From: Candidatus Saccharimonadales bacterium
GTDB taxonomy: Bacteria > Patescibacteriota > Saccharimonadia > Saccharimonadales > UBA10212
Assembly: GCA_035758565.1 (NCBI GenBank)
Contig: DASTXL010000001.1
Coordinates: 203,242-267,241 of the forward strand
Length of the DNA stretch: 64,000 nucleotides
Reading direction: 5' to 3'
A model generated the notes under the pieces. The model ran no database searches and was not told where the DNA came from. It was given only the letters and a program-made list of their open reading frames with translations. Made by a program: the position numbers and the translations under genes. This document shows positions 5,107 through 56,381 of the stretch, one piece after another. Each line of letters opens with the position of its first letter. The stretch's first letter is position 1.

Positions 5107-5193
5107 AGGGAAAAGAAAAGCACCGGTTCGCCGGATGGCGAATCTGGATTTATTCCAGAAGGTGCGATAGGAAAAACCGTAGGTTTGTCCTAT
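5107..5193 (+). repeat. Structured intergenic repeat, copy 1 (three-way variant), rplV|rpsC junction
   Basis: AGGGAAAAGAAAAGC box. CACC...GGTG closes two sub-hairpins (GGTTCGCC/GGCGAATC and TGGA/TCCA). Followed by GCGAT and hairpin ATAGGAaAAACC-gta-GGTTTgTCCTAT. Confidence 0.8.
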
Positions 5194-6283: not shown

Positions 6284-6357
6284 AGGGAAAAGATAGCCCA
6301 GGCAAAAACCACGCTTTTTGCCTGGCGCGATAAGAAAAACCGCAGGTTTGTCTTATC
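6284..6357 (+). repeat. Structured intergenic repeat, copy 2, rplP|rpmC junction
   Basis: AGGGAAAAGATAGC box; hairpin CCAGGCAAAAA/TTTTTGCCTGG; CGCGAT linker; hairpin ATAAGAaAAACC-gca-GGTTTgTCTTAT. Confidence 0.8.
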
Positions 6358-6380
6358 TGAAGTTAAGGAGGAGGCATAAG

Positions 6381-6581: not shown

Positions 6582-6599
6582 ATGACCTCTTCCATTTTT

Positions 6600-6671
6600 A
6601 GGGAAAAGACAGCCCGACAAAATGTATTCCATTTTGCCGGCGCGATAGGAAAAACCGTAGGTTTGTCCTAT
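6600..6671 (+). repeat. Structured intergenic repeat, copy 3, rpmC|rpsQ junction
   Basis: Identical over 72 nt to copy 7. Hairpins are CCGaCAAAATG/CATTTTGcCGG and ATAGGAaAAACC-gta-GGTTTgTCCTAT. Confidence 0.85.
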
Positions 6672-6694
6672 GAACGACCGGAGGGAGTGTAGAT

Positions 6695-7000: not shown

Positions 7001-7372
7001 ATGATTCAGCAAGAATCCCGCCTGCTTGTTGCCGATAACAGTGGCGCCCGCTCACTTCTTTGCATTCGTGTTCTAGGCGGTTCGCGCCGCCGATACGCCC
7101 GCGTTGGCGACATTATTGTTGCTAGCGTCAAAACCGCTAACCCAGCTGGCGGCGTAAAGCGCAAGAGCATCGTTAAGGCGGTAGTAGTGCGTACTCGTAA
7201 TCCGATTCGCCGCGCTGATGGCAGCACTATTCGCTTTGATGACAACGCCGCTGTAGTACTCGCCGAGGATGGCAAGAGTCCACGTGGTACCCGTATCTTT
7301 GGCCCGGTTCCACGCGAACTGCGCGAGCAAGGTTACAGCCGAATTATTTCACTAGCTCCGGAGGTACTGTAA
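7001..7372 (+). CDS. rplN: 50S ribosomal protein uL14
   Basis: [16 protein letters not shown] start. Confidence 0.95.
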
Positions 7373-7701: not shown

Positions 7702-8366
7702 TGGCTACGTCTCCTGATGTAAGGAAAAAGAGCAGCCCGAGCGGCGATTCACTCGACGCCCGGCGCGATGAGAAAAAACCATCGGTTTTGTCTCATAAGG
7801 CCGAAGGCCGCAGTTACGAATCTCGCTTGAAAGTGGCCTACAACACTAAATTCGCTCGTGAACTCAAAGACGAGCTTAAGCTAGATAACATCAACCAGGT
7901 TCCAAAGTTAGAGAAGATTACAATTAACGTTGGCCTGGGTCGTGCCAAAGACGATAAACGCTTGCTGGAAGTTGCTGCCAATACTATCCGCAAAATTACT
8001 GGTCAGCAACCAATCGAAACTGTGGCCAAACAGTCAATCGCAACCTTTAAGCTGCGCGAAGGTAACAAAATCGGTATGAAGGTTACCTTACGCGGCGACC
8101 GTATGTACGATTTTGCCGATCGCTTGATCAACATTGTTCTCCCACGTCTGCGCGACTTTCACGGCACTAGCAACCGGGCTTTTGACCGCCAAGGCAACTA
8201 CAGTATTGGCCTAACCGACCAGTCGGTCTTCCCCGAACTTAGTTACGAAGATACAGCTACCGCTCACGGGCTTCAGGTAGTGTTTACTATCCGGACCCAA
8301 GAGCCAGATCACGCTAAAGCACTGCTGAAGAAATTCGGCATGCCATTTGAGAAGGAGAATTCCTAA
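7701..8366 (+). CDS. rplE: 50S ribosomal protein uL5 with an N-terminal extension encoded by repeat copy 4
   Basis: The conserved uL5 core starts near RLKVAYNTKF...QVPKLEKITINVGLG. The only ATG is at 7701, overlapping the rplX stop. In-frame TTG 7827 and GTG 7833 lack a well-placed SD. Confidence 0.85.
   Translation: MATSPDVRKKSSPSGDSLDARRDEKKPSVLSHKAEGRSYESRLKVAYNTKFARELKDELKLDNINQVPKLEKITINVGLGRAKDDKRLLEVAANTIRKITGQQPIETVAKQSIATFKLREGNKIGMKVTLRGDRMYDFADRLINIVLPRLRDFHGTSNRAFDRQGNYSIGLTDQSVFPELSYEDTATAHGLQVVFTIRTQEPDHAKALLKKFGMPFEKENS
7722..7796 (+). repeat. Structured intergenic repeat, copy 4, inside the 5' end of the rplE ORF
   Basis: AGGAAAAAGAGCAGC box; imperfect hairpin CCGAGCGGCGA/TCGACGCCCGG; CGCGAT linker; hairpin ATGAGAaAAAACC-atc-GGTTTTgTCTCAT. 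Confidence 0.7.
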
Positions 8367-8382
8367 AATGTTGAATTTAGTA

Positions 8383-8455
8383 ATGGAAAAGAGCAGCCAG
8401 AGTTTGGATTCACTCCAAACCCTGCGCGATGAGAAAAACCGCAGGTCTGTCTCAT
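8383..8455 (+). repeat. Structured intergenic repeat, copy 5, rplE|rpsN junction
   Basis: TGGAAAAGAGCAGC box; hairpin CAGaGTTTGGA/TCCAAACcCTG; CGCGAT linker; hairpin ATGAGAaAAACC-gca-GGTcTgTCTCAT. Confidence 0.8.
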
Positions 8456-8477
8456 GCTCTGATAAGGAGGATAAATA

Positions 8478-8747
8478 ATGGCCAAGAAATCAATCCTCGC
8501 GCGTGATGCGAAACGAGACAAAATGATCGCTAAATACGCCGCTAAGCGCGCCGAACTCAAAGCAGTCGGTGATTACGAAGGCCTAGCCAAATTGCCTCGC
8601 AATTCTAGCCCGACCCGTCACACTAACCGCTGCGCCGAGACAGGCCGCCCACGCGGATTTATGCGTCAGTTTGGTTTATCTCGCATTGCTTTCCGCGAGC
8701 ACGCCAGCCGGGGCGAAGTTCCAGGCGTAACAAAGAGTAGTTGGTAA
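8478..8747 (+). CDS. rpsN: 30S ribosomal protein uS14 (long, non-zinc form)
   Basis: [13 protein letters not shown] start, [18 protein letters not shown] motif and a ...KSSW end. Confidence 0.95.
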
Positions 8748-8774: not shown

Positions 8775-8861
8775 AGGGAAAAGAGTAGCACCGGTCCGGC
8801 AATTGCCGGATTTGGATTCATTCCAAAAGGTGCGTTGAGGAAAACCGTAGGTTGTCCTCAA
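8775..8861 (+). repeat. Structured intergenic repeat, copy 6 (three-way variant), rpsN|rpsH junction
   Basis: AGGGAAAAGAGTAGC box. CACC...GGTG closes TCCGGC/GCCGGA and TTGGA/TCCAA. Followed by hairpin TTGAGGAaAACC-gta-GGTTgTCCTCAA. Confidence 0.8.
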
Positions 8862-17372: not shown

Positions 17373-17395
17373 AAATGATGTATTTGCAGCTAAAT

Positions 17396-17467
17396 AGGGA
17401 AAAGACAGCCCGACAAAATGTATTCCATTTTGCCGGCGCGATAGGAAAAACCGTAGGTTTGTCCTAT
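17396..17467 (+). repeat. Structured intergenic repeat, copy 7, rpsK|rpsD junction
   Basis: Its 72 nt are identical to copy 3 (6600-6671). Confidence 0.85.
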
Positions 17468-17486
17468 AAGGACGGAGTCCGCTAAG

Positions 17487-18107
17487 ATGGCACGAGATAC
17501 TCAAAGTATAGTTAAAATGTCTCGCCGTGAAGGCTACGCTCTTCACCCTAAGGCTCACAAAGCCCTGGTTAAGCGCAGCGCCCTACCTGGCCAGCAGAAC
17601 ACCGGCGGCTACAACCGCACTAAGTCTAGTCAGTATTCATTGCAGTTGCGCGAAAAGCAGAAAGTGAAGAGACTTTACGGCCTATTAGAGCGTCAATTCG
17701 CTAAATTAATGACCGAGGCCAGCAAAGCCCGCGGTCAATCCGGCGCAACTTTATTGCAGTACCTAGAGCGGCGCTTAGACAATGTTATTTACCGGGCTGG
17801 TTTAGCGCCAAGCCGCCGCGCCGCGCGCCAAATGGTCACTCATGGCCACTACATGCTCAATGGCCGCCGAGTTGATGTTCCCTCTATCCGTGTTAAGGAA
17901 GGTGATGTAATCGTCGTGCGGGATCACAGCAAAGGCAGTGATTATTTCAAACGCCTGGAAGATACCAGCCCAGCACCGGCCGCTTATCCTGCCTGGTTGA
18001 AGGTTAATCGCAAAAAGCTGGAGGTTACTATTACAGGTATTCCTACCCGTGACGATGCCGAACCAGACATCAAAGAACAGTTAATCGTAGAATATTATTC
18101 ACGCTAA
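17487..18107 (+). CDS. rpsD: 30S ribosomal protein uS4
   Basis: SRREGYAL motif, an S4 domain (RLDNVIYRAGLAPSRRAARQMVTHGH) and operon position. Confidence 0.95.
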   Translation: MARDTQSIVKMSRREGYALHPKAHKALVKRSALPGQQNTGGYNRTKSSQYSLQLREKQKVKRLYGLLERQFAKLMTEASKARGQSGATLLQYLERRLDNVIYRAGLAPSRRAARQMVTHGHYMLNGRRVDVPSIRVKEGDVIVVRDHSKGSDYFKRLEDTSPAPAAYPAWLKVNRKKLEVTITGIPTRDDAEPDIKEQLIVEYYSR

Positions 18108-25413: not shown

Positions 25414-25865
25414 AAACACAACCTTACTACAGACAAATAAACCCAAATTATAACAAAACCAAAAACAAACAGGCTAAATAGAGTTAACGCAAAAGTTGCT
25501 TCAATCCTCACGCGCCTAATTTCAATTTTTGAAGCTAATTTATGAATCGAAAGCAAAAGCGTCGACGCTAATAAGACAATGGTTGCTAAACTAGAGATAA
25601 TCAGATAGGGATAGTACTTGGACGCTCCACAGGTGTCAGAAGATGGGTCGAGGTAGTTGGATAATAAAGTGAGTGCTGTAGCTACCAGCAGGCTGATAAA
25701 GGACGATCGTAGCCTGTGTCTGGCTACTGTCGACCAGGCCGTTTCTACTATCATTGCATAAGTATAGTACGGTTTAGATTTTTTACCGCAATATCTGGCA
25801 TTTTTACCTCTGTTTTGATAAACTAACTTCGAGCTTAACAAATAAGCTCTTTTTCTTGCCGACAT
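25410..25865 (-). CDS. Hypothetical multi-TM membrane protein (start uncertain)
   Basis: Hydrophobic ORF. The annotated ATG lies 8 nt inside tRNA-Thr, so the internal M at 25754 is an alternative start. Confidence 0.35.
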   Translation of the reverse strand: MSARKRAYLLSSKLVYQNRGKNARYCGKKSKPYYTYAMIVETAWSTVARHRLRSSFISLLVATALTLLSNYLDPSSDTCGASKYYPYLIISSLATIVLLASTLLLSIHKLASKIEIRRVRIEATFALTLFSLFVFGFVIIWVYLSVVRLCF

Positions 25866-25933
25866 AGCTCAGTGGCTAGAGCGGCTGTTTTGTAAACAGC
25901 GGGTCGTGGGTTCGAATCCCTCTGTCGGCTCCA
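25858..25933 (+). tRNA. tRNA-Thr (anticodon UGU)
   Basis: Manual cloverleaf: acceptor GCCGACA/TGTCGGC, D arm GCTC...GAGC, anticodon stem GCTGT/ACAGC with loop TTTGTAA, T-loop TTCGAAT, encoded CCA. Confidence 0.85.
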
Positions 25934-26085
25934 TGATTTTGAGCCCGCCTTTTGGCGGTAGCAAAATTATCTAGTCGATACGGATGAGAACCCGGGTGAG
26001 TGAGCGAAAGCGAACAAGGGTTCGTACAGGAATGAGCGTGCAGGAATTTATTCCGAACAAGCGAATTCCGTGCAAGCGTAAGCGC

Positions 26086-26103
26086 ATCCCTCTGTCGGCT
26101 CCA
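26086..26103 (+). repeat. Direct repeat of the tRNA-Thr(UGU) 3' end (18/18 nt)
   Basis: ATCCCTCTGTCGGCTCCA is identical to 25916-25933, and lies 152 nt after the tRNA end. Confidence 0.9.
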
Positions 26104-38838: not shown

Positions 38839-38865
38839 AGTGGCCCTTAGTGTTACGATAGAGCT

Positions 38866-39084
38866 ATGCAAAAAGTAGCTACTCGAGTATTTATTGGCGC
38901 GTCGATCGTTTTTGGTATTCTGGGCGTCATCCAGGTTATAACAATGCCAGACAATGACAACGATGCGTCAGATTTTAACAAGATAATCGTGCGGCTTCTA
39001 ATGGCAACCGTCTTTATCGTCTTGCCTTCATTCGCATTAAGCATTGCCGGCAAGTATTTAAACGATAGTTCCAGAGGTCGATAG
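38866..39084 (+). CDS. Small two-TM membrane protein
   Basis: 72-aa ORF with two hydrophobic helices. Confidence 0.4.
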   Translation: MQKVATRVFIGASIVFGILGVIQVITMPDNDNDASDFNKIIVRLLMATVFIVLPSFALSIAGKYLNDSSRGR

Positions 39085-39092
39085 GCAAGAAT

Positions 39093-39674
39093 ATGGGAAA
39101 GCTAATATATTTATTCACCACATCGCTGGACGGCTACGTCGCCGATAAAAATGGCGATTTTAGTTGGTCGAAACCAACCGAGGAGGTCCACTTTTTTGTC
39201 AACGACCAATTGCGTAACGTCGGCACGATTCTAATGGGTCGCAATTTGTACGAGACCTTAAAAGCTTGGGACGACATTCCTACTAAAGGGGTAGGCGGCA
39301 TCATGGACGGCCCAAGTCCAGCCATGAATGATTATTCTAAGATATGGCACGCCGCTAATAAGGTAGTTTATTCTTCTTCGCTTTCTGAGCTCGCGATAGA
39401 CAACGCGAAGATTGAGCGGTCATTTGATCCTGAAGCAGTCAAAAAGCAAGTGGCCGAATCGGCTCATGATTTTGATATCGGCGGTCCGCATCTGGCCGCC
39501 CAGGCCATCAAGGCTGATATTATCGACGAATACCACCAAATTATCGCTCCGCTAATCCTTGGCGAAGGTAATTTCTGGCTGCCCGGCGGGAACCGCAACA
39601 AGCTGGAGCTGGTAGATATGCGCAAGTTTGAAAACGGCTTCGTGCACCTGCATTATAGAAAGGCTGAAGAATGA
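39093..39674 (+). CDS. RibD C-terminal domain / dihydrofolate reductase-family protein
   Basis: TSLDGYVADKNGDFSW and ILMGRNLYE motifs are typical of RibD_C proteins. Confidence 0.6.
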   Translation: MGKLIYLFTTSLDGYVADKNGDFSWSKPTEEVHFFVNDQLRNVGTILMGRNLYETLKAWDDIPTKGVGGIMDGPSPAMNDYSKIWHAANKVVYSSSLSELAIDNAKIERSFDPEAVKKQVAESAHDFDIGGPHLAAQAIKADIIDEYHQIIAPLILGEGNFWLPGGNRNKLELVDMRKFENGFVHLHYRKAEE

Positions 39675-40231
39675 AGAAATTAATCATGTGGAATTTGGTC
39701 ACGCTCGATGGGTTTTTTGAGGGCGAGAAGCCGTGGGATTTATCTTTCCACGGCCTGGTTTTCGATAAAGAGCTAGAGGATTTTACGATCAAGCAGCTAG
39801 ATTCAGCCGACGCAGTTATTTATGGCGAGAATACATACAAAGGCATGGCCGAATACTGGACCGACCCCGACCAAGTAGACGATATTAAGACCGAACCTAT
39901 AAATAAAATTAAAAAATATGTTTGTTCGCCTACACTTAAGACTGCCGATTGGCAAAATACCACGGTTATTAAAGACGCCGTGAGCGAGATACCCAAATTG
40001 AAGCAGGAAGGCGACGGCAATCTGTTCGTTTTTGGCAGCGCCATCTTGAGCGAATCGCTTACGCGCGCGAACCTGTTCGATGAATACCGCTTGTGCGTAG
40101 TGCCGGTGTTCTTGGGCAAGGGCAGGCGGCTGTTCAACGACGGCCTGCCGTATCAAAAATTAAAACTACTAAAATCTCAACCCCTACAATCCGGCGCCAT
40201 CATCCTTACATACGCTCCAAGCTCAAGTTAG
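39671..40231 (+). CDS. RibD C-terminal domain / dihydrofolate reductase-family protein (paralog)
   Basis: VTLDGFFEG, VIYGENTY and LFVFGSAILS motifs. Overlaps the upstream paralog by 4 nt. Confidence 0.55.
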   Translation: MKKLIMWNLVTLDGFFEGEKPWDLSFHGLVFDKELEDFTIKQLDSADAVIYGENTYKGMAEYWTDPDQVDDIKTEPINKIKKYVCSPTLKTADWQNTTVIKDAVSEIPKLKQEGDGNLFVFGSAILSESLTRANLFDEYRLCVVPVFLGKGRRLFNDGLPYQKLKLLKSQPLQSGAIILTYAPSSS

Positions 40232-40262
40232 CGGGAGACCCAAAAACCCAGTTTGATATAGT
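40231..40262 (+). promoter_or_regulatory. Island cassette repeat R1 (GC box - A tract - extended -10)
   Basis: GCGGGAGACCCAAAAACCCAGTTTGATATAGT. Six nt separate the -10 box from the ATG at 40269. Confidence 0.6.
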
Positions 40263-40268
40263 GAGCCT

Positions 40269-40838
40269 ATGCGAACTCGAATAATTCTTCATGGCGGCAA
40301 CTCCGATAGAAGCACCGAAAAGAACGCCAAGTTCTTTAAAGAAATTGTCGATGGCGTGGGAACTAATACGGTAAAAGTCTTATGTGTCTATTTTGCCCGT
40401 CCGGAACACCGCTGGGATGATTCGTACGAAGAAGATAAATATATTTTCCAAAGAATAGATACCGACAAAGATGTAGAAACCGAATTAGCTACTTATGATT
40501 CATTCGTAGACCAAATAGCCGCTGCGGATATTGTGTTTATAAATGGCGGCCATAGAGGGCACTTAAAAGAAACTCTGCTTTCGATCGGTGTGGAGCGCTT
40601 TAGACAGATGGTTGAAGGCAAAACTCTAGTGGGCATAAGCGCCGGAGCGAACATTCTTTCAAAATATTATTATTCGTCGGTAGCTCAAGACATCCGAGAG
40701 GGAACTAACTTCTTGAACATAAAGCTGTTTACTCACTTCTCAGAAGATGAACCTGAACAGCTCAATGATTTAAAGTCGTATGCCGAAGATCTGCCTGTAG
40801 TCACGATTCCCGAAGAAGAGTATTTAGTTATCGAGTAG
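40269..40838 (+). CDS. Peptidase S51 (dipeptidase E-like) family protein
   Basis: ILHGGN, FINGGH and GISAGAN motifs. Confidence 0.5.
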   Translation: MRTRIILHGGNSDRSTEKNAKFFKEIVDGVGTNTVKVLCVYFARPEHRWDDSYEEDKYIFQRIDTDKDVETELATYDSFVDQIAAADIVFINGGHRGHLKETLLSIGVERFRQMVEGKTLVGISAGANILSKYYYSSVAQDIREGTNFLNIKLFTHFSEDEPEQLNDLKSYAEDLPVVTIPEEEYLVIE

Positions 40839-40855
40839 GCACCCGCAGAAAATCA

Positions 40856-40893
40856 GGCGGAGCGGACCCAAAAAATCCCCAGTTTGTTATAAT
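40856..40893 (+). promoter_or_regulatory. Island cassette repeat R2
   Basis: GGCGGAGCGGACCCAAAAAATCCCCAGTTTGTTATAAT. Six nt separate the -10 box from the ATG at 40900. Confidence 0.65.
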
Positions 40894-40899
40894 TCATTC

Positions 40900-41145
40900 A
40901 TGGCAGAGGATGAATTTACTAAACTTTTCAAATACATCACCGAACGTTTCGACAAGGTAGATGCAGAGCTTGAGAAAAAAGCCGATGCAGCTCTGGTAGA
41001 AAAAGTTCTGGCTTTGATTGATAAGATTGCCAAACAACAGGAAATCAACGACGAAGAACGCCTGGTCATGGGCCACCAGTTGGACAGAATGGACCGCTGG
41101 GTCCATGAGCTGGCCGACAAGATTGGTTATAAACTTTCAGTTTAA
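40900..41145 (+). CDS. Small coiled-coil hypothetical protein
   Basis: 81-aa ORF with a leaderless-type start. Confidence 0.45.
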   Translation: MAEDEFTKLFKYITERFDKVDAELEKKADAALVEKVLALIDKIAKQQEINDEERLVMGHQLDRMDRWVHELADKIGYKLSV

Positions 41146-41158
41146 GACTGTAGTGATT

Positions 41159-41287
41159 ATGAAGCTCAAAGGAAAAGTAGCAAAAATTGGCAAAGCGACG
41201 GTTGTTGTATTCGATAAAGCCATGTTCGAAAAGTCAGGTTTGAAGGTTGGTGATTTGGTAAGCCTAGCTGGTATCAAAAAGCTTTAA
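41159..41287 (+). CDS. Very small AbrB/MazE-like (SpoVT-AbrB fold) candidate
   Basis: 42 aa: MKLKGKVAKIGKATVVVFDKAMFEKSGLKVGDLVSLAGIKKL. The call is a weak pattern match only. Confidence 0.25.
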   Translation: MKLKGKVAKIGKATVVVFDKAMFEKSGLKVGDLVSLAGIKKL

Positions 41288-41296
41288 CGGCTAACT

Positions 41297-41557
41297 GCTC
41301 CATTTGTTCTGGCAAAACGGAATCTAAAAATCTCGAACCAAAGCTACGTTCTTTACCAAAGAACCAAATGTTTTTCATCCATTTCTTGGTCGCGAAGAAA
41401 CGGAAGCCAAAGAACGACAGGCAACTCACTCCCGCAGGACTGTTTCGTACGTTCATGAAAAGGGAAGACTGCGGAACTCGTGCTTTGGGCACTCAAACAG
41501 TCCTCGCTTCAGACTTTTCATAAACTTCTTTAGCAGCTCTGGTTCGCTCGAGCCTGG
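41297..41557 (+). repeat. Repeat family copy A (modules 1+2)
   Basis: Aligns with 43389-43604 (same strand) and with the reverse complement of 47505-47732. Ends in GGTTCGCTCGAGCCTGG. Confidence 0.8.
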
Positions 41558-41570
41558 GGTTTTTGAGCCG

Positions 41571-41609
41571 GGCGGGGCGGACCCAAAAAATCCCAAGATT
41601 GCTTATGCT
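41571..41609 (+). promoter_or_regulatory. Island cassette repeat R3 (divergent -10 part)
   Basis: GGCGGGGCGGACCCAAAAAATCCCAAGATTGCTTATGCT. The downstream gene has its own GGAGGAAGC SD. Confidence 0.5.
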
Positions 41610-41656
41610 TGCAATGTTGAATCGTTAAGAATATATTTCTGTTAATCGGAGGAAGC

Positions 41657-42016
41657 ATGGCAGAGAGAACACATCCAAATGAAAAGTACGTAGAAAATCT
41701 ATTTAACGACGCTATTAATTGGCTAGGTGTAGTTGGAGAATATGACCATAATATTCCAAAGGAAGATAATCCCTACAACCGGTCGGTAGATAAGGCCCTA
41801 AACTTCTTAGCTAGCCAAATCGCCGAAAGTTCAATAGATATAGCCATGCTACTATCTACCTTAGAACGACAAGCACAGACAGTAGTTGCCGAATCTGATG
41901 ACCTCTATGGGGACTTGGACAGAGTTATTAGGACCAATCAAATGTATGTGCTAGCCAGGACGATGAACGCATATTCTTCGCCAGAACGTATTGTTCACAT
42001 CCCGCTGGAAGTGTAA
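41657..42016 (+). CDS. Hypothetical protein
   Basis: 119-aa ORF with a CGGAGGAAGC SD. Confidence 0.45.
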   Translation: MAERTHPNEKYVENLFNDAINWLGVVGEYDHNIPKEDNPYNRSVDKALNFLASQIAESSIDIAMLLSTLERQAQTVVAESDDLYGDLDRVIRTNQMYVLARTMNAYSSPERIVHIPLEV

Positions 42017-42027
42017 ACCCTCAGCCG

Positions 42028-42065
42028 CTGAGGCAAACCCAAAAAATCCCAAGTTTTGATATAAT
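42028..42065 (+). promoter_or_regulatory. Island cassette repeat R4
   Basis: GCTGAGGCAAACCCAAAAAATCCCAAGTTTTGATATAAT. Six nt separate the -10 box from the ATG at 42072. Confidence 0.6.
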
Positions 42066-42071
42066 ATTCTT

Positions 42072-42167
42072 ATGAATAAAGTAGCAACAAAGCCGAACGT
42101 TCAGGTCTGGACAAAGAACTTCATCAAGAAGTACTCTCCGGCTTTAAAAGAGCTGTCCAAAAAATAA
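42072..42167 (+). CDS. 31-aa candidate antitoxin partner of Doc
   Basis: MNKVATKPNVQVWTKNFIKKYSPALKELSKK. It ends 6 nt before the doc start, in the usual upstream position of an antitoxin. Confidence 0.3.
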   Translation: MNKVATKPNVQVWTKNFIKKYSPALKELSKK

Positions 42168-42173
42168 AAATCT

Positions 42174-42560
42174 ATGAACCAAATATCGGTCGACGATGTT
42201 GTTTACATCCACGACCATATTATTGCCGCTTCTGGCGGTCTTACGGGACTAAGGGATAAAGGACAGCTCAAAGCTTGCCTAGCCAGGCCTTTTCAAAGCG
42301 CTTTTGGTGAAGAAACATATCCCGATCTGTTCGAGAAAGCAGCCGCCTTACTGGACTGCATTGCCAATGATCATCCGTTTGCAGATGGCAATAAACGAAC
42401 AGCCATGGCGTCGGCAGTTATCTTTCTGGTGTCGTACGGTATATCTACCGACTTCACGAACCAAGAATACGAAGATTTCATGCTCCACGTCGTTAATGAT
42501 AAGCCGAGCATCCAAGAGATTGCCAACTGGCTTCGCCAACACGGCGACATAATTATTTAA
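42174..42560 (+). CDS. doc: Fic/Doc-family toxin (death-on-curing type)
   Basis: HPFADGNKRTA matches the Doc variant of the Fic motif, and the 128-aa size fits. Confidence 0.8.
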   Translation: MNQISVDDVVYIHDHIIAASGGLTGLRDKGQLKACLARPFQSAFGEETYPDLFEKAAALLDCIANDHPFADGNKRTAMASAVIFLVSYGISTDFTNQEYEDFMLHVVNDKPSIQEIANWLRQHGDIII

Positions 42561-42566
42561 AACACA

Positions 42567-42603
42567 GGCGGGGCGGACCCAAAAAATCCCAGTTTGATAT
42601 AGT
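42567..42603 (+). promoter_or_regulatory. Island cassette repeat R5
   Basis: GGCGGGGCGGACCCAAAAAATCCCAGTTTGATATAGT. Seven nt separate it from the ATG at 42610. Confidence 0.65.
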
Positions 42604-42609
42604 TTTTAT

Positions 42610-43374
42610 ATGTACAAGTCATTTACAGCAGATGATTATCGCAAACACTTAAAGCTGCCGGCCGATTATGTTGTTGATGGTTTTTTAATTTACGGCACGT
42701 TTAGAAAGTTCCCATACGAACAGTTGGAGGATTCACTCAAAAAACAAAGGATAGAATATCAAACCGCAAAAATTGGCGACGAATATTTTGACCCAGTGCT
42801 TACGTTTAGGGTAGGCAATAATAATTATTGGTTCACTATTGCTTACGGCGGAACAATGCTAAGCGAATATCTACATTTAGCCTGCACGTTTGGCAGCAAG
42901 AAGAACCTTTTGATAGGTAGTTGCGGCGGGCTCAAAAAAGGCGCGTCGAGTTTGGACATCATAGTTCCGGACTGGAGCTATGGCGACGAAAGTTCCGCGA
43001 GGTCCTATCAGAACGAAAAAGATGGTAAGCAGTATTCGGACACTTCGATTTCTGATAGGTTGGCAGATAAACTAGCCGATAAATACAAGGTGCACCGTGG
43101 TCCAACCGTCACTCATCAAGCAATGCTTGGTGAAACCTGGGAAGACATTGAGCGCTGGGCACAACAGGGCTATATTGGCGTAGAGATGGAAGCATCTACT
43201 GTTTTTGCGGTATCGAATCATTTTAAAGTACCCTCGGCTGCCATTCTTCACATTGGCGATAACCTTATAGAAGAAGAAACGGTTATGGACATAAATTACG
43301 AAACCAACCGCGATTTACACAGGCAAGTTTCTCAAGACATCTTCGATGCAGCCGTTGAAGAATTACTTAAATAG
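42610..43374 (+). CDS. Nucleoside phosphorylase-superfamily (PNP_UDP_1-like) protein
   Basis: GSCGGL and GVEMEAS motifs. Confidence 0.5.
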   Translation: MYKSFTADDYRKHLKLPADYVVDGFLIYGTFRKFPYEQLEDSLKKQRIEYQTAKIGDEYFDPVLTFRVGNNNYWFTIAYGGTMLSEYLHLACTFGSKKNLLIGSCGGLKKGASSLDIIVPDWSYGDESSARSYQNEKDGKQYSDTSISDRLADKLADKYKVHRGPTVTHQAMLGETWEDIERWAQQGYIGVEMEASTVFAVSNHFKVPSAAILHIGDNLIEEETVMDINYETNRDLHRQVSQDIFDAAVEELLK

Positions 43375-43388
43375 CTTTTAGACGCAAA

Positions 43389-43604
43389 CTCAAAAATCCA
43401 TGTTCTTTAGCAAAGAACCAAATGTTTTCAACCATTTGATTCGGCAAACGGTTGACCAAAGCCGACAGGCATTCGCTCCGGCAGGGCTGGTTCGTACGTT
43501 TTTAAAAAGGGAAGACTGCGAAACTCGCGGATTGGCGCTTCAAACAGTCCTCGCTTCAGGCTTTTCATAAACTTCTCACCAATCTCTGGTTCGCTCGAGC
43601 CTGG
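43389..43604 (+). repeat. Repeat family copy B
   Basis: Shares GTTCTTTagcAAAGAACCAAATG...AAAAGGGAAGACTGCGaAACTCG...CAAACAGTCCTCGCTTCAG...GGTTCGCTCGAGCCTGG with copy A. Confidence 0.8.
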
Positions 43605-43641
43605 ATTTGATTAACGTAAAATTAAAGTCCCTATATTTGCT

Positions 43642-44550
43642 ATGATGAATCTCATGAAAACGGACTATTCTCTTGAATGGTTTCAGGAGAGAGCATTTAA
43701 ATCACTTAAGAAAATCAAAGAAGGCCAGTGGGACTATTCAGATCCATCATTGATCTACGTGCCTGACGAGGAAGAAAAATACGAAACAGTTCAGCAGAGC
43801 GGAAGTCGATACCACGAACTTATCACGGAACCAGAAAAGAAGTATCTGGAACAAATTGCACCAATAGTAGCAAATGCGCTGCCAAATGATTTTGAATATA
43901 TCGATCTCGGTCCTGGCAATGCACATAAAGAACAATATATTTTTGACGCGCTCAAAGCCCTGGGAAAAAAATTTAAGTACATCCCTGTAGACATAGATAA
44001 AAAATATCTTGATCTTGCTGCTCGGCATGCAGAGCGACAAGGTATCGAGGTTTCAGATGCTCAGCTACTCTTCGAAGAATTACCGTACAGATTGCCAGCA
44101 AGTCATACCCCGCGCTTTGTTTCCATCGGAATGACGTTTACGAACTATGCGCCTGACACGATCTTGCCGCTGTTGAAGAAGATTGCCGGTCAATCCGGAT
44201 ACGTCTTGACTAATTCACAGATCAGGGAACGGCTAGATATGGCCGCGGTCACGGATGTTTATCAGGATGAGGTTTATGCGTTACTGGAGACAAAGATAAG
44301 GTTGCTAGGACTTCGTCCCTCAGATCTTGAAAAGCAATGGTGCGACGACGGCATCAGAGCCTGGTTTAAGATAAAGAATGTCAGCCAAGATCTCAGCAAG
44401 CTCGGCGTCAGAGCTGGTGATGAGTTCTTAGCCTATTATTTCTTTAGGCCGACTATAAAATCGCTTTCAGAAAGCTTCAGCCGACACTTCGACAGCTTCA
44501 AACTGCTCGATATTAACGCCGCCTTTGTGGCCGGCCTACTCTTTACCTAA
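43642..44550 (+). CDS. SAM-dependent methyltransferase (EgtD/Methyltransf_33-like)
   Basis: YIDLGPGNAHKEQYIFDAL resembles the SAM-binding motif I of EgtD-type enzymes. This is the only supporting motif. Confidence 0.35.
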   Translation: MMNLMKTDYSLEWFQERAFKSLKKIKEGQWDYSDPSLIYVPDEEEKYETVQQSGSRYHELITEPEKKYLEQIAPIVANALPNDFEYIDLGPGNAHKEQYIFDALKALGKKFKYIPVDIDKKYLDLAARHAERQGIEVSDAQLLFEELPYRLPASHTPRFVSIGMTFTNYAPDTILPLLKKIAGQSGYVLTNSQIRERLDMAAVTDVYQDEVYALLETKIRLLGLRPSDLEKQWCDDGIRAWFKIKNVSQDLSKLGVRAGDEFLAYYFFRPTIKSLSESFSRHFDSFKLLDINAAFVAGLLFT

Positions 44551-44554
44551 AACC

Positions 44555-44596
44555 GGGCGGGGCAAACCCAAAAAATCCTCTTATTGTTAATATAGT
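44555..44596 (+). promoter_or_regulatory. Island cassette repeat R6
   Basis: GGGCGGGGCAAACCCAAAAAATCCTCTTATTGTTAATATAGT, followed by a second TGTTATAAT. Confidence 0.5.
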
Positions 44597-44671
44597 CATA
44601 TTATGTTATAATTTACTTATCTTTGGAAGCAATTCCTCAGATTGTAATGTCATCCTATTCTAGGAGGCATC

Positions 44672-45133
44672 ATGGACGATCAGACGGTGAGCCCCGAGGC
44701 TCGCACCGCTGCCAAGTGGTGGGCAGACCAGCTGCGTGGGCCGGCGAGGATGGACAACGGATCGCTTGAGTACTCCATGGAGACCGGCGACCCGAACCAC
44801 TTCGACCAGGCCATCACGACGATGGGTCTCGCAGGGATACTCAACGAGCGCGAACGCTCCGGCCTCAGCGACGAGCAGATCTCCGTGTTCGAAGAAGCGC
44901 TCGCAAGGCGCGTCCAGGAGCGGCTGCAGCAGTCCGGTGAGTTCGGCGTCACGATCGACGTCGACTACCACCCGGACTACCTGCTCGTCGACAGCGCGGA
45001 CGAGGCCGGCATTCGTGTCGGCATGACGCTCTTCCCCTGGAAGACGACCATGTGGATCGAGACCGGAAGCGTCAGGGTGAGCTGCGGCTACCGCGGCCCG
45101 ACCGAGGACCTGTCGATCGCCACCGCGTCATAG
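44672..45133 (+). CDS. High-GC hypothetical protein (horizontally acquired, actinobacterial-type codon usage)
   Basis: 153-aa ORF with a TAGGAGG SD. Codon third positions are almost all G/C (GAC, GAG, CTC, ACG, ATC), unlike neighbouring genes. A GC-rich terminator hairpin follows (GGGCGGGAGC...GCTCCCGCCC). Confidence 0.65.
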   Translation: MDDQTVSPEARTAAKWWADQLRGPARMDNGSLEYSMETGDPNHFDQAITTMGLAGILNERERSGLSDEQISVFEEALARRVQERLQQSGEFGVTIDVDYHPDYLLVDSADEAGIRVGMTLFPWKTTMWIETGSVRVSCGYRGPTEDLSIATAS

Positions 45134-45254
45134 GAGAAACAGCCCTCATTGCCGTTTCCACGGGCGGGAGCCGTAGAGCTCCCGCCCCAGCGCCATGAAC
45201 GCTTCTGCATTTGCAGTCAAGCGCCTTGGCGCTTTTTTCGATTCTAAAATCATC

Positions 45255-45286
45255 GGGGCGGACCCAAAAAATCCTGGTCTGTATTC
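45255..45286 (+). promoter_or_regulatory. Island cassette repeat R7 (divergent 3' part)
   Basis: GGGGCGGACCCAAAAAATCCTGGTCTGTATTC. A GATATAAT box lies at 45301-45308. Confidence 0.5.
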
Positions 45287-45331
45287 TTCGCTAAAACGAA
45301 GATATAATTGCGGTAAGGATGGTCTAAGAGT

Positions 45332-46507
45332 ATGAGCCGAGAAAATAGAGTTTTTAAATTAACCTTTCTTGTCGTCGCCAAGGACTGGGACGAAGTAATT
45401 ACTGTCTTCAAAAAAGAATTAGGAATCACAAAAGTTAAAGAGGACATTGGTGACTACAAGATGGCGGGTCACTATATTGTTGGATTAGATTTATCTGATA
45501 GAGACCTAAGCGACGGTTTCTATGGAAAGATTCATGCAAGTTCAACAATAACTCTGTTAAGCGACAAGGCATCTGATGAGCGAGCACAAAAGATCCTGGA
45601 CCTCGCAAGACCAATTGAGCTAAAGCTTAGAGAGTTAATTATCTATGCTCACGAGCTAGTTGACGCGTACTTCGACATTATTCAACCTAAAAGTCCTGTG
45701 GCGAAGAGGTTTATGGGCTCTAAGCAATTAGTGGGCAAGGAAGTTTTAGATTCGGCCGTTTCATTTCTCGACCTAGGGGAAATTATAAAAGTTCTGGGAA
45801 GTGATGGGAATGAGGTCGACACAACCAGACCCACAGACGACATAGTTAAACTGCTAGAGGCAACTTCGAACTTTGAACAATTTAAGGAAAAATTGATTAA
45901 GAAGTTTAAGCGCCTAACGGTCTGGGATGTTATTGCGAAGACGGTTTTGCAACAACCGATTTCTTGGTTAAGTATCAAAGATGACTTAAACGAGCTAAAA
46001 AACATCCGTAATGTAGCCGCTCATTTTAGAATCGCAACGCCGGATAATCTTAAGAGAGCGACCGAATTGTCAGGAAGTTTACTACCCCAGCTATCGAGAA
46101 AGCCGGACCCGGACCGAAAAGCAATTGAGGAGATGGCTCAAACTTTTTCTGTGTGGGCTAAAGAATACGAGTTGTTCAAGGAAGTAAATAAAGCCGCACT
46201 TGATGCTATAAAGGTTAATAATAGTTTTCTTACGCAGGCCACTAAAGACATTTCAAACTCTTTCAGATCTGCAATCCCAGACATAAATTCTTCGATATCA
46301 AACTTTAATACAGTTTCAGGTTCGATATATCCAGATTCTTTATTGCGAAGTATGGCGTTTCCTGATATTTCGTCGATAAATCCAGGAGCGGGTTTGCATA
46401 AGGCTAGTCCTGATATCGGGAAATTCTTGGGCAGTGAATACGATAGCGACCAGGGTGACAGCGAAGATGAAGATAGCACTTCTATGGCGCCTGTTAAGAA
46501 AAAATAA
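45332..46507 (+). CDS. HEPN-domain protein (Rx4H; Swt1/Abi-like)
   Basis: LNELKNIRNVAAHFR contains the R-x4-H HEPN signature in the usual helical context. The C-terminus is low-complexity and acidic. Confidence 0.5.
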   Translation: MSRENRVFKLTFLVVAKDWDEVITVFKKELGITKVKEDIGDYKMAGHYIVGLDLSDRDLSDGFYGKIHASSTITLLSDKASDERAQKILDLARPIELKLRELIIYAHELVDAYFDIIQPKSPVAKRFMGSKQLVGKEVLDSAVSFLDLGEIIKVLGSDGNEVDTTRPTDDIVKLLEATSNFEQFKEKLIKKFKRLTVWDVIAKTVLQQPISWLSIKDDLNELKNIRNVAAHFRIATPDNLKRATELSGSLLPQLSRKPDPDRKAIEEMAQTFSVWAKEYELFKEVNKAALDAIKVNNSFLTQATKDISNSFRSAIPDINSSISNFNTVSGSIYPDSLLRSMAFPDISSINPGAGLHKASPDIGKFLGSEYDSDQGDSEDEDSTSMAPVKKK

Positions 46508-46514
46508 AGACATA

Positions 46515-47477
46515 ATGAAACTGCCAAACCGCGACAAAATCATCAACGAGCTTACTCGCCGCTATGAAGAAGTGCTTAGGAGATCTGAGAGCAGATTGAA
46601 GAATGACGAGGACGCACGTCAATTTATATCGCTGATCGCCCACTATATTAACTACATTAAGCAAGACGAACTCACAGAGGAAGCCATAACAAAATTATTT
46701 AAAAATAAAGAGGCACTCGCGAGTGATCAAGTTCTTATTGATGAGGCAGATAAAATCATAGTTCAGTTAAGAAAAGATCGTAATAAGGTTGTTAAATTTG
46801 CAGCCAAACAAGGTATTGATACTGGACCGTATCAATTTAATACTTCCAGCACGGCTCAACAGATTACGCTAGACAAGGAGGTCTCTTTTAACCTTAGCTT
46901 CTTGGACAATTTCCTCAAACTTCCCAGCGACCATCAAAGAGTCAGTGATTTACCAAATCAAATAGGTCATTTCCGCTCAATTATTTTTGCCACCACGCAA
47001 TTAGCGGGCGAGACAAGAGCACTCACAAAGTTAAAGTCTGACTATAGCGATATATCTAACGAGTTTGCAAAGAAGCTAAAGATGCAGGGCGTGTATTTAA
47101 ATTATCTACGGATTGAAGATTATCAAGCCCTAGAGGTTGTTTGGCGAGAGGTTTATCAAGAGAGCGATCATGATGAGCAATTTATATTTCACTTTATGTA
47201 CGGAGATTTGTTTGAAAAAAACCGAACTTTTTCTCCCGGTCAACAAAATGATGCAAATGAATTTGTATCAAAATATATGAGCCACCTACAACGCGTGCAT
47301 AACTACCTAATCGATGGACTTGAGAATGCGCCCTCTTCTGAAAAATTTGTTAAGTGGCTTGTAGAACATTTTGGCCCAACTTTAGCTTCAGTAATAATCA
47401 TCCTAGTAATATATGTAATTCTCCGTCATCTAGGTCTGAAGATAGACATAAACTCACTAAAGAATTGGGTCGGGTAA
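46515..47477 (+). CDS. Hypothetical protein with a C-terminal TM anchor
   Basis: The ATG at 46515 is 8 nt after the HEPN gene stop. The C-terminal helix is LASVIIILVIYVILRHLGL. Confidence 0.45.
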   Translation: MKLPNRDKIINELTRRYEEVLRRSESRLKNDEDARQFISLIAHYINYIKQDELTEEAITKLFKNKEALASDQVLIDEADKIIVQLRKDRNKVVKFAAKQGIDTGPYQFNTSSTAQQITLDKEVSFNLSFLDNFLKLPSDHQRVSDLPNQIGHFRSIIFATTQLAGETRALTKLKSDYSDISNEFAKKLKMQGVYLNYLRIEDYQALEVVWREVYQESDHDEQFIFHFMYGDLFEKNRTFSPGQQNDANEFVSKYMSHLQRVHNYLIDGLENAPSSEKFVKWLVEHFGPTLASVIIILVIYVILRHLGLKIDINSLKNWVG

Positions 47478-47504
47478 GTCGAACGTCGACTTGTTCCTGA
47501 TATT

Positions 47505-47732
47505 CCAGGCTCGAGAAAACAGAGAGAGTGAGGAGCGAGTTCAAAAGTCTGAACCGAGGACTGTTTGAGCGCCAAACGGCGAGTTCCGCAGGTTCACTTT
47601 TGGCGATTGTGCGAGCGACCATCTAGTTTTCGAATGCCTGCCGTTTCTTGGCTTCCGTTCTTTCGCGGCCAAAGAATGGAAGAAAACATTTGGTACTTTT
47701 CAAAAGTACATTCTTGCCAGAACAAAATGGAA
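47505..47732 (-). repeat. Repeat family copy C (inverted orientation)
   Basis: Its reverse complement aligns with copy A. On the plus strand the core 47506-47640 is closed by CAGGCTCGAGAAAAC...GTTTTCGAATGCCTG. Confidence 0.8.
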
Positions 47733-47761
47733 CAAAAAATAGTTAAGCGTACAATAAAGTT

Positions 47762-48025
47762 ATGGCCTACGAACCGGACGAGGAAGACCTTAAATGGATG
47801 AAAACTCGCAAAAGCGGGCATACGTACGCAGAGCGCGCTAAATGGCGTGAAGAATACGCCAAAACCCACCCCGCTAAAGAAATTGAGAGCCATGGCTGGC
47901 GAGACTTCTTTATAGGTTTAGCTATTATGATAATCATTATTTTGATAGCTTTTGCTCTGGGCGGTAACGACCCTACTACTGACGGAAATTGTAATCAAGC
48001 TAACTTTTCGGGTTTGGGCTGTTAA
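47762..48025 (+). CDS. Small membrane protein
   Basis: 87-aa ORF with one TM helix (FFIGLAIMIIIILIAFALGG). Confidence 0.4.
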   Translation: MAYEPDEEDLKWMKTRKSGHTYAERAKWREEYAKTHPAKEIESHGWRDFFIGLAIMIIIILIAFALGGNDPTTDGNCNQANFSGLGC

Positions 48026-48265
48026 TCTGTTACCGTGTCTTAATGGGAGATATGCCCGCTTAGACTGTTGCCTAACAGAGTTAATTTTGCTAATATATCC
48101 AGGAACTTGAGCCAAAGACAGCGACGGGGAAACCTTAATAAAGTCGCCTAGGAACAAGAAAGTCTTATAGATTTTTACGTTAGTCTTTTGGCCATAATAG
48201 GCCATTTTTTATAGCTCAAGACACCTTAACAAATTGGTCGATATTGTTAAACAAGGAGAAAACTC
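48026..48265 (+). promoter_or_regulatory. Long untranslated leader upstream of rplJ (candidate L10 autoregulatory leader)
   Basis: 240 nt without a credible ORF, ending in an AAGGAGAAAA SD. L10-leader regulation is known in many bacteria, but no structure was verified here. Confidence 0.25.
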
Positions 48266-49462: not shown

Positions 49463-49552
49463 AGGGAAAGGTAGTAGCTCCGGTTCGGCTTTGGCCGAAT
49501 CCGGATTTACTCCGGAAGGAGCGTTGAAGGAAAACCGCAGGTTGTCCTTCAA
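49463..49552 (+). repeat. Structured repeat, copy 8 (three-way variant; orphan, outside any operon junction)
   Basis: AGGGAAAGGTAGTAGC box. CTCC...GGAG closes GGTTCGGC/GCCGAATC and CGGA/TCCG. Followed by hairpin TTGAAGGAaAACC-gca-GGTTgTCCTTCAA. It has no start codon, and stop codons occur in the frames used by the other copies. Confidence 0.75.
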
Positions 49553-53779: not shown

Positions 53780-54072
53780 CAACTGCGTCGCGCAGGGCCT
53801 GTTTTCCGGCATAGCCGGAAATTCCGCCCGCGCTCTCGGCGAATCGCTGCGTTAGCTACGCTCTGTCGCTCGTTCAGAGTAGCAATTCTACACTTCACTC
53901 GCTCCTCACTGCTGCCTTGCGATTCATCCAAGCGCAGCGCTAGGATTATCGCTATGTTTCAGACGCAAAAATGATTGCTCATGATTATTTATCAGTCTTT
54001 GCACTACGCCCAAATGTAAAGCTAGGGAACTGTTATTAAGGTACAGAAAGAGGTTTTGCTATAATTGTGCTT

Positions 54073-56184: not shown

Positions 56185-56194
56185 TATATAGTCA

Positions 56195-56327
56195 GCACTC
56201 GAGAAAACAGAGGGAGCGAGTAGCGAGGCAAAAGCAGTATCGAGGACTTGTCTGACGAACAAAGTGAGGAGTCCCGCAGATTCACTTTTGACGAGCAACC
56301 GAGCGACCATCTAGTTTTCGAATGTGC
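56195..56327 (-). repeat. Repeat family copy D (module 2 only)
   Basis: GCACTCGAGAAAACAGAGGGAGCGAG...CTAGTTTTCGAATGTGC parallels 47506-47640, with compensatory closing pairs (GCAC/GTGC compared with AGGC/GCCT). Confidence 0.7.
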
Positions 56328-56381
56328 TGAGAGCTTGGCGCCACCTTGTCGGCACAAGGTGGCAAAGGTACAATTATACTA

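Follow-up and report, generated by a model that had tools for sequence, protein, structure and literature searches.

What kind of element is repeated four times, each time just after a gene, in a 64,000-nt stretch of the genome of a Candidatus Saccharimonadales bacterium (assembly GCA_035758565.1, contig DASTXL010000001.1, positions 203,242 to 267,241; the whole stretch is hereafter called the window)? An initial annotation had described the copies, A to D, as structured repeats resembling the boundaries of MITEs (miniature inverted-repeat transposable elements) or composite elements, and had offered a multi-copy small RNA as the alternative. All four copies were confirmed in position and strand (Table 1), and they are members of an uncatalogued, widely spread, structured, non-coding family that is present at some orthologous sites and absent from others. 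Our tentative reading, to which we give slightly less than an even chance, is that they are mobile, non-autonomous hairpin elements at gene 3' ends, similar to REPIN, ERIC, and MITE sequences and forming a widespread family.

Anatomy and structural constraint

The anatomy is given throughout on the strand used in the initial annotation. Units range from ~140 to 260 nt, fold as a long hairpin, and consist of a 5' hairpin module, a short CAAAG-type linker, and an imperfect palindrome of ~140 nt, here called the rod; the four rods in the window score 104-144 bits with a covariance model. In the long form (copies A, B, and C), an AU-rich hairpin P0 is followed by CAAATGTTTTC, a second hairpin P1, the linker GCCAAAGAACGA, and the rod. 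Copy D had been taken for the core alone but also has a 5' hairpin (P1', CCACCTTGTGCCGACAAGGTGG) and a linker (CGCCAAGCTCT) homologous to those of the other copies, which together with the rod make up a short form. Repeat finding places A and B in direct orientation and likewise C and D, with A and B inverted relative to C.

The rod (~135-160 nt) is built from a 5-bp closing helix, AAAAC/GTTTT with further pairs, a bubble of ~12 by 12 nt that is pyrimidine-rich on both of its strands (GGTCGCTCG, ACTCGCTCCTCAC), the helices CAAAAG/CTTTTG and GAACC/GGTTC, and the apex. Its ends read ATTCGAAAAC...GTTTTCTCGAG in copies C and D. The apex has the form CCTGCGGAACTC-(variable hairpin)-TCARACAGTCCTCG, interrupted by a constant bulged U, a C·U mismatch, and a second bulge of 6 nt, and this asymmetric motif (AACTC-hairpin-TCARACAG) stays fixed while the rod stems change by compensation. 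In copy A, the P1 loop GUCG is able to pair with CGAC just 5' of the rod. The window contains exactly four matches to AAAAGKGAA(N1-2)CTGCGRRACTC, where 0 are expected, and likewise four of AGTCCTCGNTNCNG, where 0.76 are expected. A flanking sequence of copies A and C, TTCTGGCAA, was considered as an inverted match to the 3' end of rarA and dropped, as a degenerate duplicate of P1 (P1* in Table 1) explains it better.

Covariation was assessed on 13 distinct members in an alignment that was fitted to the model and so favors structure, but the margin is large. Ninety-one percent (91.0%) of rod cells are paired, compared with 74.2% in shuffles and 34-54% when the partners are slid, and compensatory double changes are found in 22 of 32 rod pairs, compared with about 10.5 in shuffles; an earlier test on 11 sequences agrees. 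The terminal pairs covary (CAGGC, CAGCAC, CGGAC, TTGGC, CCGGGC), which bears out the exchange of CAGGC/GCCTG for GCAC/GTGC noticed initially and identifies it as helix 1. Across members, the apical hairpin has anywhere from 2 to 13 bp, all of them Watson-Crick pairs. Hairpin P0, proposed from the exchange of GTTCTTT/AAAGAAC for GTACTTTT/AAAAGTAC, is real and has further covarying versions elsewhere (it covaries among A, B, C, and the loci L017, L018, L027, L046, and L050b), and changes in the P1 stem are compensated in A, B, C, L017, L018, and L046 (TTTCTT/AAGAAA, TTCTTT/AAAGAA, TTTTTG/CAAAAA, CAACC/GGTTG). The other internal pairing that had been proposed, GTTTG/CAAAC against CTTGT/ACAAG, is not a conserved structure: across the 13 sequences, TCARAC is an invariant unpaired bulge, and it is the adjoining hairpin that covaries, independently.

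The most conserved block, AAAAGKGAA(N1-2)CTGCGG, contains a 1-nt indel that separates the A/B type from the C/D type, and the reading frame left open in A and B is interrupted by a stop codon in copy C. A coding gene or pseudogene is thus excluded, and the element is non-coding. The possibility that the repeats are an already annotated RNA gene was also checked: Rfam 15 gave no match over the copies at E ≤ 10, with the whole window at gathering score, or over L053-L056 at E ≤ 1. Literature on Saccharibacteria structured RNA, 6S RNA, MITEs, and the motif strings yielded nothing relevant.

Gain, loss, and spread

DNA from relatives was fetched via homologues of RecR, RarA, and a phosphorylase encoded near copies A to C, and was then searched with the covariance model. 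Scans with a narrow sequence pattern returned one true relative among genomes (L010, a Saccharibacteria metagenome-assembled genome) and four further distinct relatives among metagenomes, all from a single sample. All copies follow a stop codon, and none of the first 11 to be tabulated lies between divergent genes. Units stand 0-50 nt past the stop codon, frequently beside or within terminator hairpins and in either orientation; they often come as inverted pairs, tail to tail, and many follow housekeeping genes (recR, rarA, ychF, murB) without cargo.

Comparison of orthologous sites reveals variable presence. Between recR and the following gene of the DHH family, the gap is 28-50 nt and element-free in four syntenic relatives (L021, L022, L023, and L025; RecR 76-85% identical). 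In the window it measures 161 nt by the listed open reading frames (ORFs), or about 195 nt to the conserved ATG, and contains copy D, which is an insertion relative to these relatives. After rarA, an element is found in L017, L018, and L046 (type-1 apex) and in L050b (type-2 apex), but there is none in L027, L032, or the genome to which the window belongs (L026); a RarA sequence ending in DFFQKS correctly predicted the rarA-linked units of L046 and L050b. Between L017 and L018, the copies at rarA share 82.5% identity, whereas rarA third codon positions (47%) and the far flank (48%) are saturated; either a resident function is under purifying selection, or the insertions are more recent than the genomes themselves.

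The type-2 apex (AAAAAGTGGGCNAAGCCGA...GTTTGGCCG) occurs in other Saccharimonadales (L050, L010) on a base and 5' module (hairpin and linker) like those of type 1; no type-2 rod was found in the window. The family also extends to very distant bacteria. A scan of IMG/VR with the apex pattern recovered it in viral-contig loci of 56-62% GC (L053-L056), which are mostly host DNA at prophage edges, and one of these copies adjoins the end of a Mu-like prophage and murB. Matches of the type-2 apex pattern on viral contigs were mostly due to chance, as the pattern is too short. When one GC-rich copy was used as a BLAST query, its 5' hairpin and linker (GTTACTTTCTTTG..CAAAGAAAGTAAC CAAAGAAA) turned up in 134 megaplasmids of Ralstonia, 3-8 times on each, and also in Variovorax and Ilyobacter (Fusobacteriota); the Ilyobacter copy has only hairpin and linker in common and differs in rod and apex. 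A 20-nt apex core, AACTCGCTTCGCTCARACAG, is common to Saccharimonadales (L046), Ralstonia, Variovorax, and the viral-contig loci, the loci ranging from 45 to 63% GC, and AT-rich modules are retained in GC-rich hosts. No match was obtained in a phage database, nor in 5,426 E. coli genomes searched by BLAST with the betaproteobacterial member L056. The element in L056 (1199-1468) is spanned by an 89-aa ORF (MAKESNQRNATP...RQSSP...), and in many GC-rich hosts such an ORF is probably annotated as a hypothetical protein.

The interval between glgX and glgB differs among Ralstonia strains, with alleles that are filled, partly deleted, or empty. In most strains it has a tail-to-tail pair of units within a larger palindrome, to which an inverted copy of the local GC-rich hairpin also belongs; on the MolK2 megaplasmid the pair lies within 1892391-1895431. 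One strain has a 285-nt internal deletion, and several have a plain hairpin only. Between tail-to-tail units in Variovorax (L177, 3190-3490) and Ralstonia (L179, 1680-1760), runs of GCTTCGCTCGGCC and a palindrome, CCCTCTCCCTCTGGGAGAGGG, were observed, which suggests a mosaic organization like that of bacterial interspersed mosaic elements (BIMEs).

Other repeats were seen in the window. The initial annotation had pointed to a short degenerate match after dnaB (53868-53910); one 14-nt exact match to copy C stands, but the covariance model does not find the site, and we list it as a doubtful decayed relative. The dnaB 3' spacer (53780-54072) is itself unusual: it measures 288 nt, compared with 19-24 nt in relatives, is highly structured (z about -2.5 to -2.8 on either strand), and has a TGcTATAAT promoter of its own at its end. 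There is also another family of repeats, AGGGAAAAGA-(hairpin)-GCGCGATAGGAAAAACCGTAGGTTTGTCCTAT, with at least eight copies, two of them identical over 73 nt, and a further copy in L014 (about 7300-7360) directly beside an element; in appearance it is a structured motif of intergenic regions or leaders. Finally, part of the 3' end of tRNA-Thr is repeated (ATCCCTCTGTCGGCTCCA, 26071-26103) 170 nt downstream of the tRNA gene (25858-25933), and this repeat resembles an att-type remnant of an integrated element.

Table 1. Copies of the element and other features; positions are those of the window unless a locus is named
Feature	Position	Strand	Remarks
Copy A, P1*	41298-41323	+	Degenerate upstream duplicate of the P1 hairpin; CTCCATTTGTTCTGGCAAAACGGAAT resembles P1 CATCCATTTCTTGGTCGCGAAGAAACGGAAG
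Copy A, P0	41348-41364	+	Hairpin GTTCTTTACCAAAGAAC; both strands U-rich in flanks
Copy A, P1	41376-41406	+	Hairpin
Copy A, rod	41418-41556	+	Imperfect palindrome with bubble and conserved apex; model match 41416-41558, 107-113 bits
Copy B, P0 and P1	43402-43454	+	P0 43402-43418; P1 43429-43454
Copy B, rod	43466-43603	+	Model match 43464-43605, 104-113 bits
Copy C, rod	47506-47640	-	Model match 47504-47642, 138-144 bits
Copy C, P1, P0, and P1*	47652-47733	-	P1 47652-47682; P0 47693-47709; P1* 47709-47733
Copy D, rod	56193-56329	-	Between recR and DHH-family gene; model match 56192-56330, 123-124 bits
Copy D, linker and P1'	56330-56362	-	Linker CGCCAAGCTCT; 5' hairpin P1' (CCACCTTGTGCCGACAAGGTGG) 56341-56362
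Type-2 rods	L010 4905-5062; L050 9262-9422 and 11230-11400
Variable island holding A, B, and C	38850-48050	.	9.2 kb, between thymidylate-kinase-like gene and L10 leader/rplJ
Motif M, six copies	40849-40889, 41564-41604, 42029-42056, 42560-42600, 44549-44589, 45254-45281	+	GGCGGGGCGGACCCAAAAAATCC
Doubtful decayed relative after dnaB	53815-53960	+	14-nt match to C; minus-strand rod-like fold; model-negative
Second repeat family	5107-5193, 6284-6379, 6599-6694, 7719-7777, 8380-8478, 8775-8853, 17395-17490, 49464-49542

Mobile element, structured RNA, or recombination site

If the repeats are mobile hairpin elements, the folded strand, as single-stranded DNA or as a transcript, would serve as substrate for a trans-acting enzyme whose gene is located elsewhere in the genome. 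This enzyme would copy or move the unit, and the invariant apex and conserved bulges would be its recognition site. An inserted rod would provide a strong two-way hairpin at the gene 3' end, and the outer hairpin may supply promoter elements such as a -35 box ahead of the DHH-family gene at copy D, where the hairpin loop reads, on the plus strand, TTGTCG 17 nt upstream of TACAAT. Pairs of units would mark spots where foreign genes accumulate, for example the island with copies A to C. A more far-reaching version of this model, which we regard as doubtful, posits a cross-phylum class of elements (in Saccharimonadales, Betaproteobacteria, Fusobacteriota, and others) whose apex and 5' hairpin are read by a trans-acting enzyme, which target terminators past stop codons, and whose tail-to-tail pairs seed hot spots for the capture of defense and toxin genes.

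The mobile reading is supported by the conserved pairing of a non-coding family, by the strand symmetry of the pairs (equal numbers of G·U and A·C, apical hairpins purely Watson-Crick), by gain and loss at recR, rarA, and glgX-glgB, by the spread across phyla, by the position after stop codons, by the inverted pairs, and by the promoter element that the hairpin loop supplies at copy D. A number of observations weigh against mobility. No transposase or recombinase was found next to any of the ~20 copies, and the flanks of 11 copies contain no clear target-site duplication. The filled and empty junctions in Ralstonia have only CGA, or an imperfect 8-mer (GGGGNCGA), in common, and with so little shared, insertion and palindrome collapse are not told apart. 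Conservation peaks at the apex and not at the termini, which covary. Copies within a genome are 55-85% identical, which indicates no recent burst, and copy number is low, at ~1 per 80 kb in loci selected without regard to the element and 3-17 on a Ralstonia replicon of 2 Mb. The conservation between L017 and L018 is explained by selection on a resident function no less well than by mobility, and the cUUCGg tetraloops present on one strand in L056 and L053b are an RNA feature. With no clear duplication, no transposase, no near-identical copies, and covarying termini, the MITE or composite-element boundaries that were proposed initially are not supported.

Some of these observations point to a structured non-coding RNA, which on balance we consider unlikely, though it is a serious rival. 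The copies would be small-RNA paralogues, or 3'-untranslated-region elements released from the upstream mRNA, made from the strand used here, and the apical loop and pyrimidine-rich bubble would bind protein or purine-rich, Shine-Dalgarno-like targets. This explanation accommodates the strong covariation, the invariant bulges and loops, the variable length of the apical hairpin, and the conservation of orthologous rarA-linked copies far above neutral sites. The strand is favored by the two tetraloops, by the hairpin module starting 0-30 nt past a co-directional stop codon in most of ~19 copies, and by convergent gene pairs with one unit per gene (L010, Variovorax L177). Pairing between the P1 loop and the linker region would form a possible pseudoknot with one compensated change (GUCG/CGAC to GCCG/CGGC), and a U run follows the rod of copy A. 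However, G·U and A·C cells are equally frequent (9 each out of 413 rod cells, G·U making up ~2% of pairs), and the working strand is therefore not told apart by these counts; for copy D, the plus strand gives the better fold (z -3.3, compared with -1.8 on the strand used here). There is no conserved -35/-10 promoter at either side of the copies (flank identity 48%), the flanks of P0 are U-rich in both directions, and C, D, and L050c face the opposite way relative to their neighbors. Variable presence among close relatives and the lack of an Rfam match also count against an RNA. The multi-copy small RNA of the initial annotation thus has covariation and tetraloops on its side, but neither an excess of G·U over A·C nor a conserved promoter.

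Some more specific RNA and DNA candidates were rejected. Likeness to a kink-turn, a hammerhead, signal recognition particle RNA, or parS was dropped by eye, as the key bases do not fit. A guide-RNA remnant of TnpB or IscB, a retron non-coding RNA, and a bridge RNA were discarded, since no such protein adjoins any copy; rarA lies between the element and the only reverse transcriptase seen (L038, 11634-12581). This 315-aa protein (RVT_1; minus strand), which occurs in a lineage of Saccharimonadales (L038-L043) and is encoded ~440 nt downstream of rarA, could belong to a retron or a diversity-generating retroelement (DGR).

Copies A to C had also been described as bracketing an island. The island is genuine, as rplJ directly follows the thymidylate-kinase-like gene in L022, L023, and L025, and its GC content is 0.444, compared with 0.482 elsewhere in the window. 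Copy A, however, does not lie at its edge (~38.85 kb). At the right edge, which is conserved, an L10 leader match (48094-48218) scores 44.1 against an Rfam gathering score of 44. Recognized island genes encode two RibD_C proteins, an S51 peptidase, a Doc toxin, the phosphorylase, a methyltransferase, and a weakly HEPN-like protein; no transposase, integrase, or recombinase was found among the island ORFs scanned. The HEPN-like protein (391 aa, 45332-46507) has an RNVAAH (Rx4H) motif and a sub-threshold HEPN_RiboL-PSP match (E 0.02), and its co-occurrence with the Doc toxin (42174-42560) suggests a defense or toxin hot spot. A composite transposon carrying the phosphorylase was rejected, as its closest homologue (77% identity, L044) lies elsewhere without rods, A is off the island edge, and no transposase is present.

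The inverted geometry that had been noticed does recur. The hairpin modules of B and C point away from each other and their rod tails toward each other. Foreign genes are enclosed in the same way at two unrelated loci: an ORF of 95 aa in L050, and one of 303 aa and low GC in L053. Inverted pairs with or without cargo are found at B/C in the window and in L050, L053, L010, L177, and L179. The island further contains six copies of a motif, M, of which five stand close after the stop codon of an island gene and the sixth (45254) ~120 nt past one. Each M is located just upstream of a -10 box of the TGnTATAAT type and resembles the tail CCCGRACCCAA(A/T)n found just 3' of many rods in other genomes. 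M may represent a promoter module, the relic of a rod tail, or a scar of recombination.

These arrangements bring to mind recombination sites that assemble cassettes, like integron attC sites or the tRNA 3' ends used by integrases, with entry at the rod tail and M as the scar or half-site. In keeping with this, the island is organized as a gene followed by M or a rod for eight consecutive units on one strand, M resembles the rod tail elsewhere, a foreign gene lies between tail-to-tail units in both L050 and L053, and three of the four viral-contig matches are at junctions of prophage and host DNA; the bubble, extrahelical bases, and variable terminal hairpin are likewise as in attC hairpins. 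We nevertheless find such a system improbable, as no integrase or recombinase was found among the island ORFs scanned or in the other loci, the GTTRRRY/RYYYAAC core is lacking, orientations are mixed, and every island gene has its own promoter. Many units follow cargo-free housekeeping genes (recR, rarA, ychF, murB), the phosphorylase homologue elsewhere lacks a unit, and M is also readable simply as an A-tract with an extended -10 promoter module.

Plain two-way terminators or insulators that merely resemble a family would account for the location at gene 3' ends and for the nested layers of A-tract, stem, and U-tract (AAAAC...GTTTT, CAAAAG...CTTTTG), which are the same on both strands, but they are very improbable, as convergent terminators do not yield a 20-nt asymmetric apex and a 45-nt hairpin-linker module kept across phyla, and most genes of the window lack the element.

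Comparison with known systems

If the units are mobile, a highly conserved hairpin element is common to very distant bacteria, including the reduced genomes of Saccharimonadales in the Candidate Phyla Radiation, and its partner enzyme could reveal a new mode of moving DNA or a structure-guided nuclease or recombinase. The cross-phylum model, if true, would describe a hairpin-based system of gene capture or mobility distinct from integrons, REPINs, and MITEs. If they are RNA, they represent a widespread structured RNA that is absent from Rfam. A model of the element would improve annotation, both of spurious hypothetical proteins in GC-rich genomes and of hot spots of variable genes.

Among known RNAs, 6S RNA also forms a rod with a closing stem, a central bubble, and a terminal stem. 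It differs from the element, which has no Rfam match, occurs in several copies, varies in presence, and conserves its apex rather than the surroundings of the bubble. Integron attC sites are similar in that their hairpins have a bubble, extrahelical bases, and a terminal structure that varies, in that they stand right after an ORF, and in that structure is preserved over sequence, whereas the element lacks the R'/R'' core and intI, is found in mixed orientation, and follows housekeeping genes.

Correia elements (NEMIS) and other bacterial MITEs are likewise intergenic, inserted in both orientations, and polymorphic among strains, and they can carry outward promoters and form RNA hairpins. The fixed 26-bp terminal inverted repeats, TA duplication, and >100 near-identical copies of Correia are all missing here, and no insertion sequence with matching ends, as expected for a DDE-type MITE, was found in the window or the loci.

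REPINs, doublets of REP sequences that form hairpins and are mobilized by Y1 transposases (RAYT/TnpA-REP), have several features in common with the element. They are long imperfect palindromes with co-evolving arms in intergenic regions at gene 3' ends, non-autonomous with a presumed enzyme elsewhere, persistent over long times with diverged copies, and common as inverted doublets. The element differs in that it has no REP of 20-40 nt with a GTAG head, conserves the apex and not the base, carries an extra 5' hairpin and linker, has a far lower copy number, and forms one recognizable family across phyla. Nothing similar to a RAYT gene was noticed in the 64-kb window and 15 kb of the same genome.

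ERIC (or IRU) sequences have no sequence similarity to the element, occur in other taxa, and lack a separate 5' hairpin module. Like the element, they are imperfect palindromes of ~130 nt, found in either orientation in transcribed intergenic regions, with larger versions that arise from insertions at fixed internal points and with species-specific locations yet high conservation.

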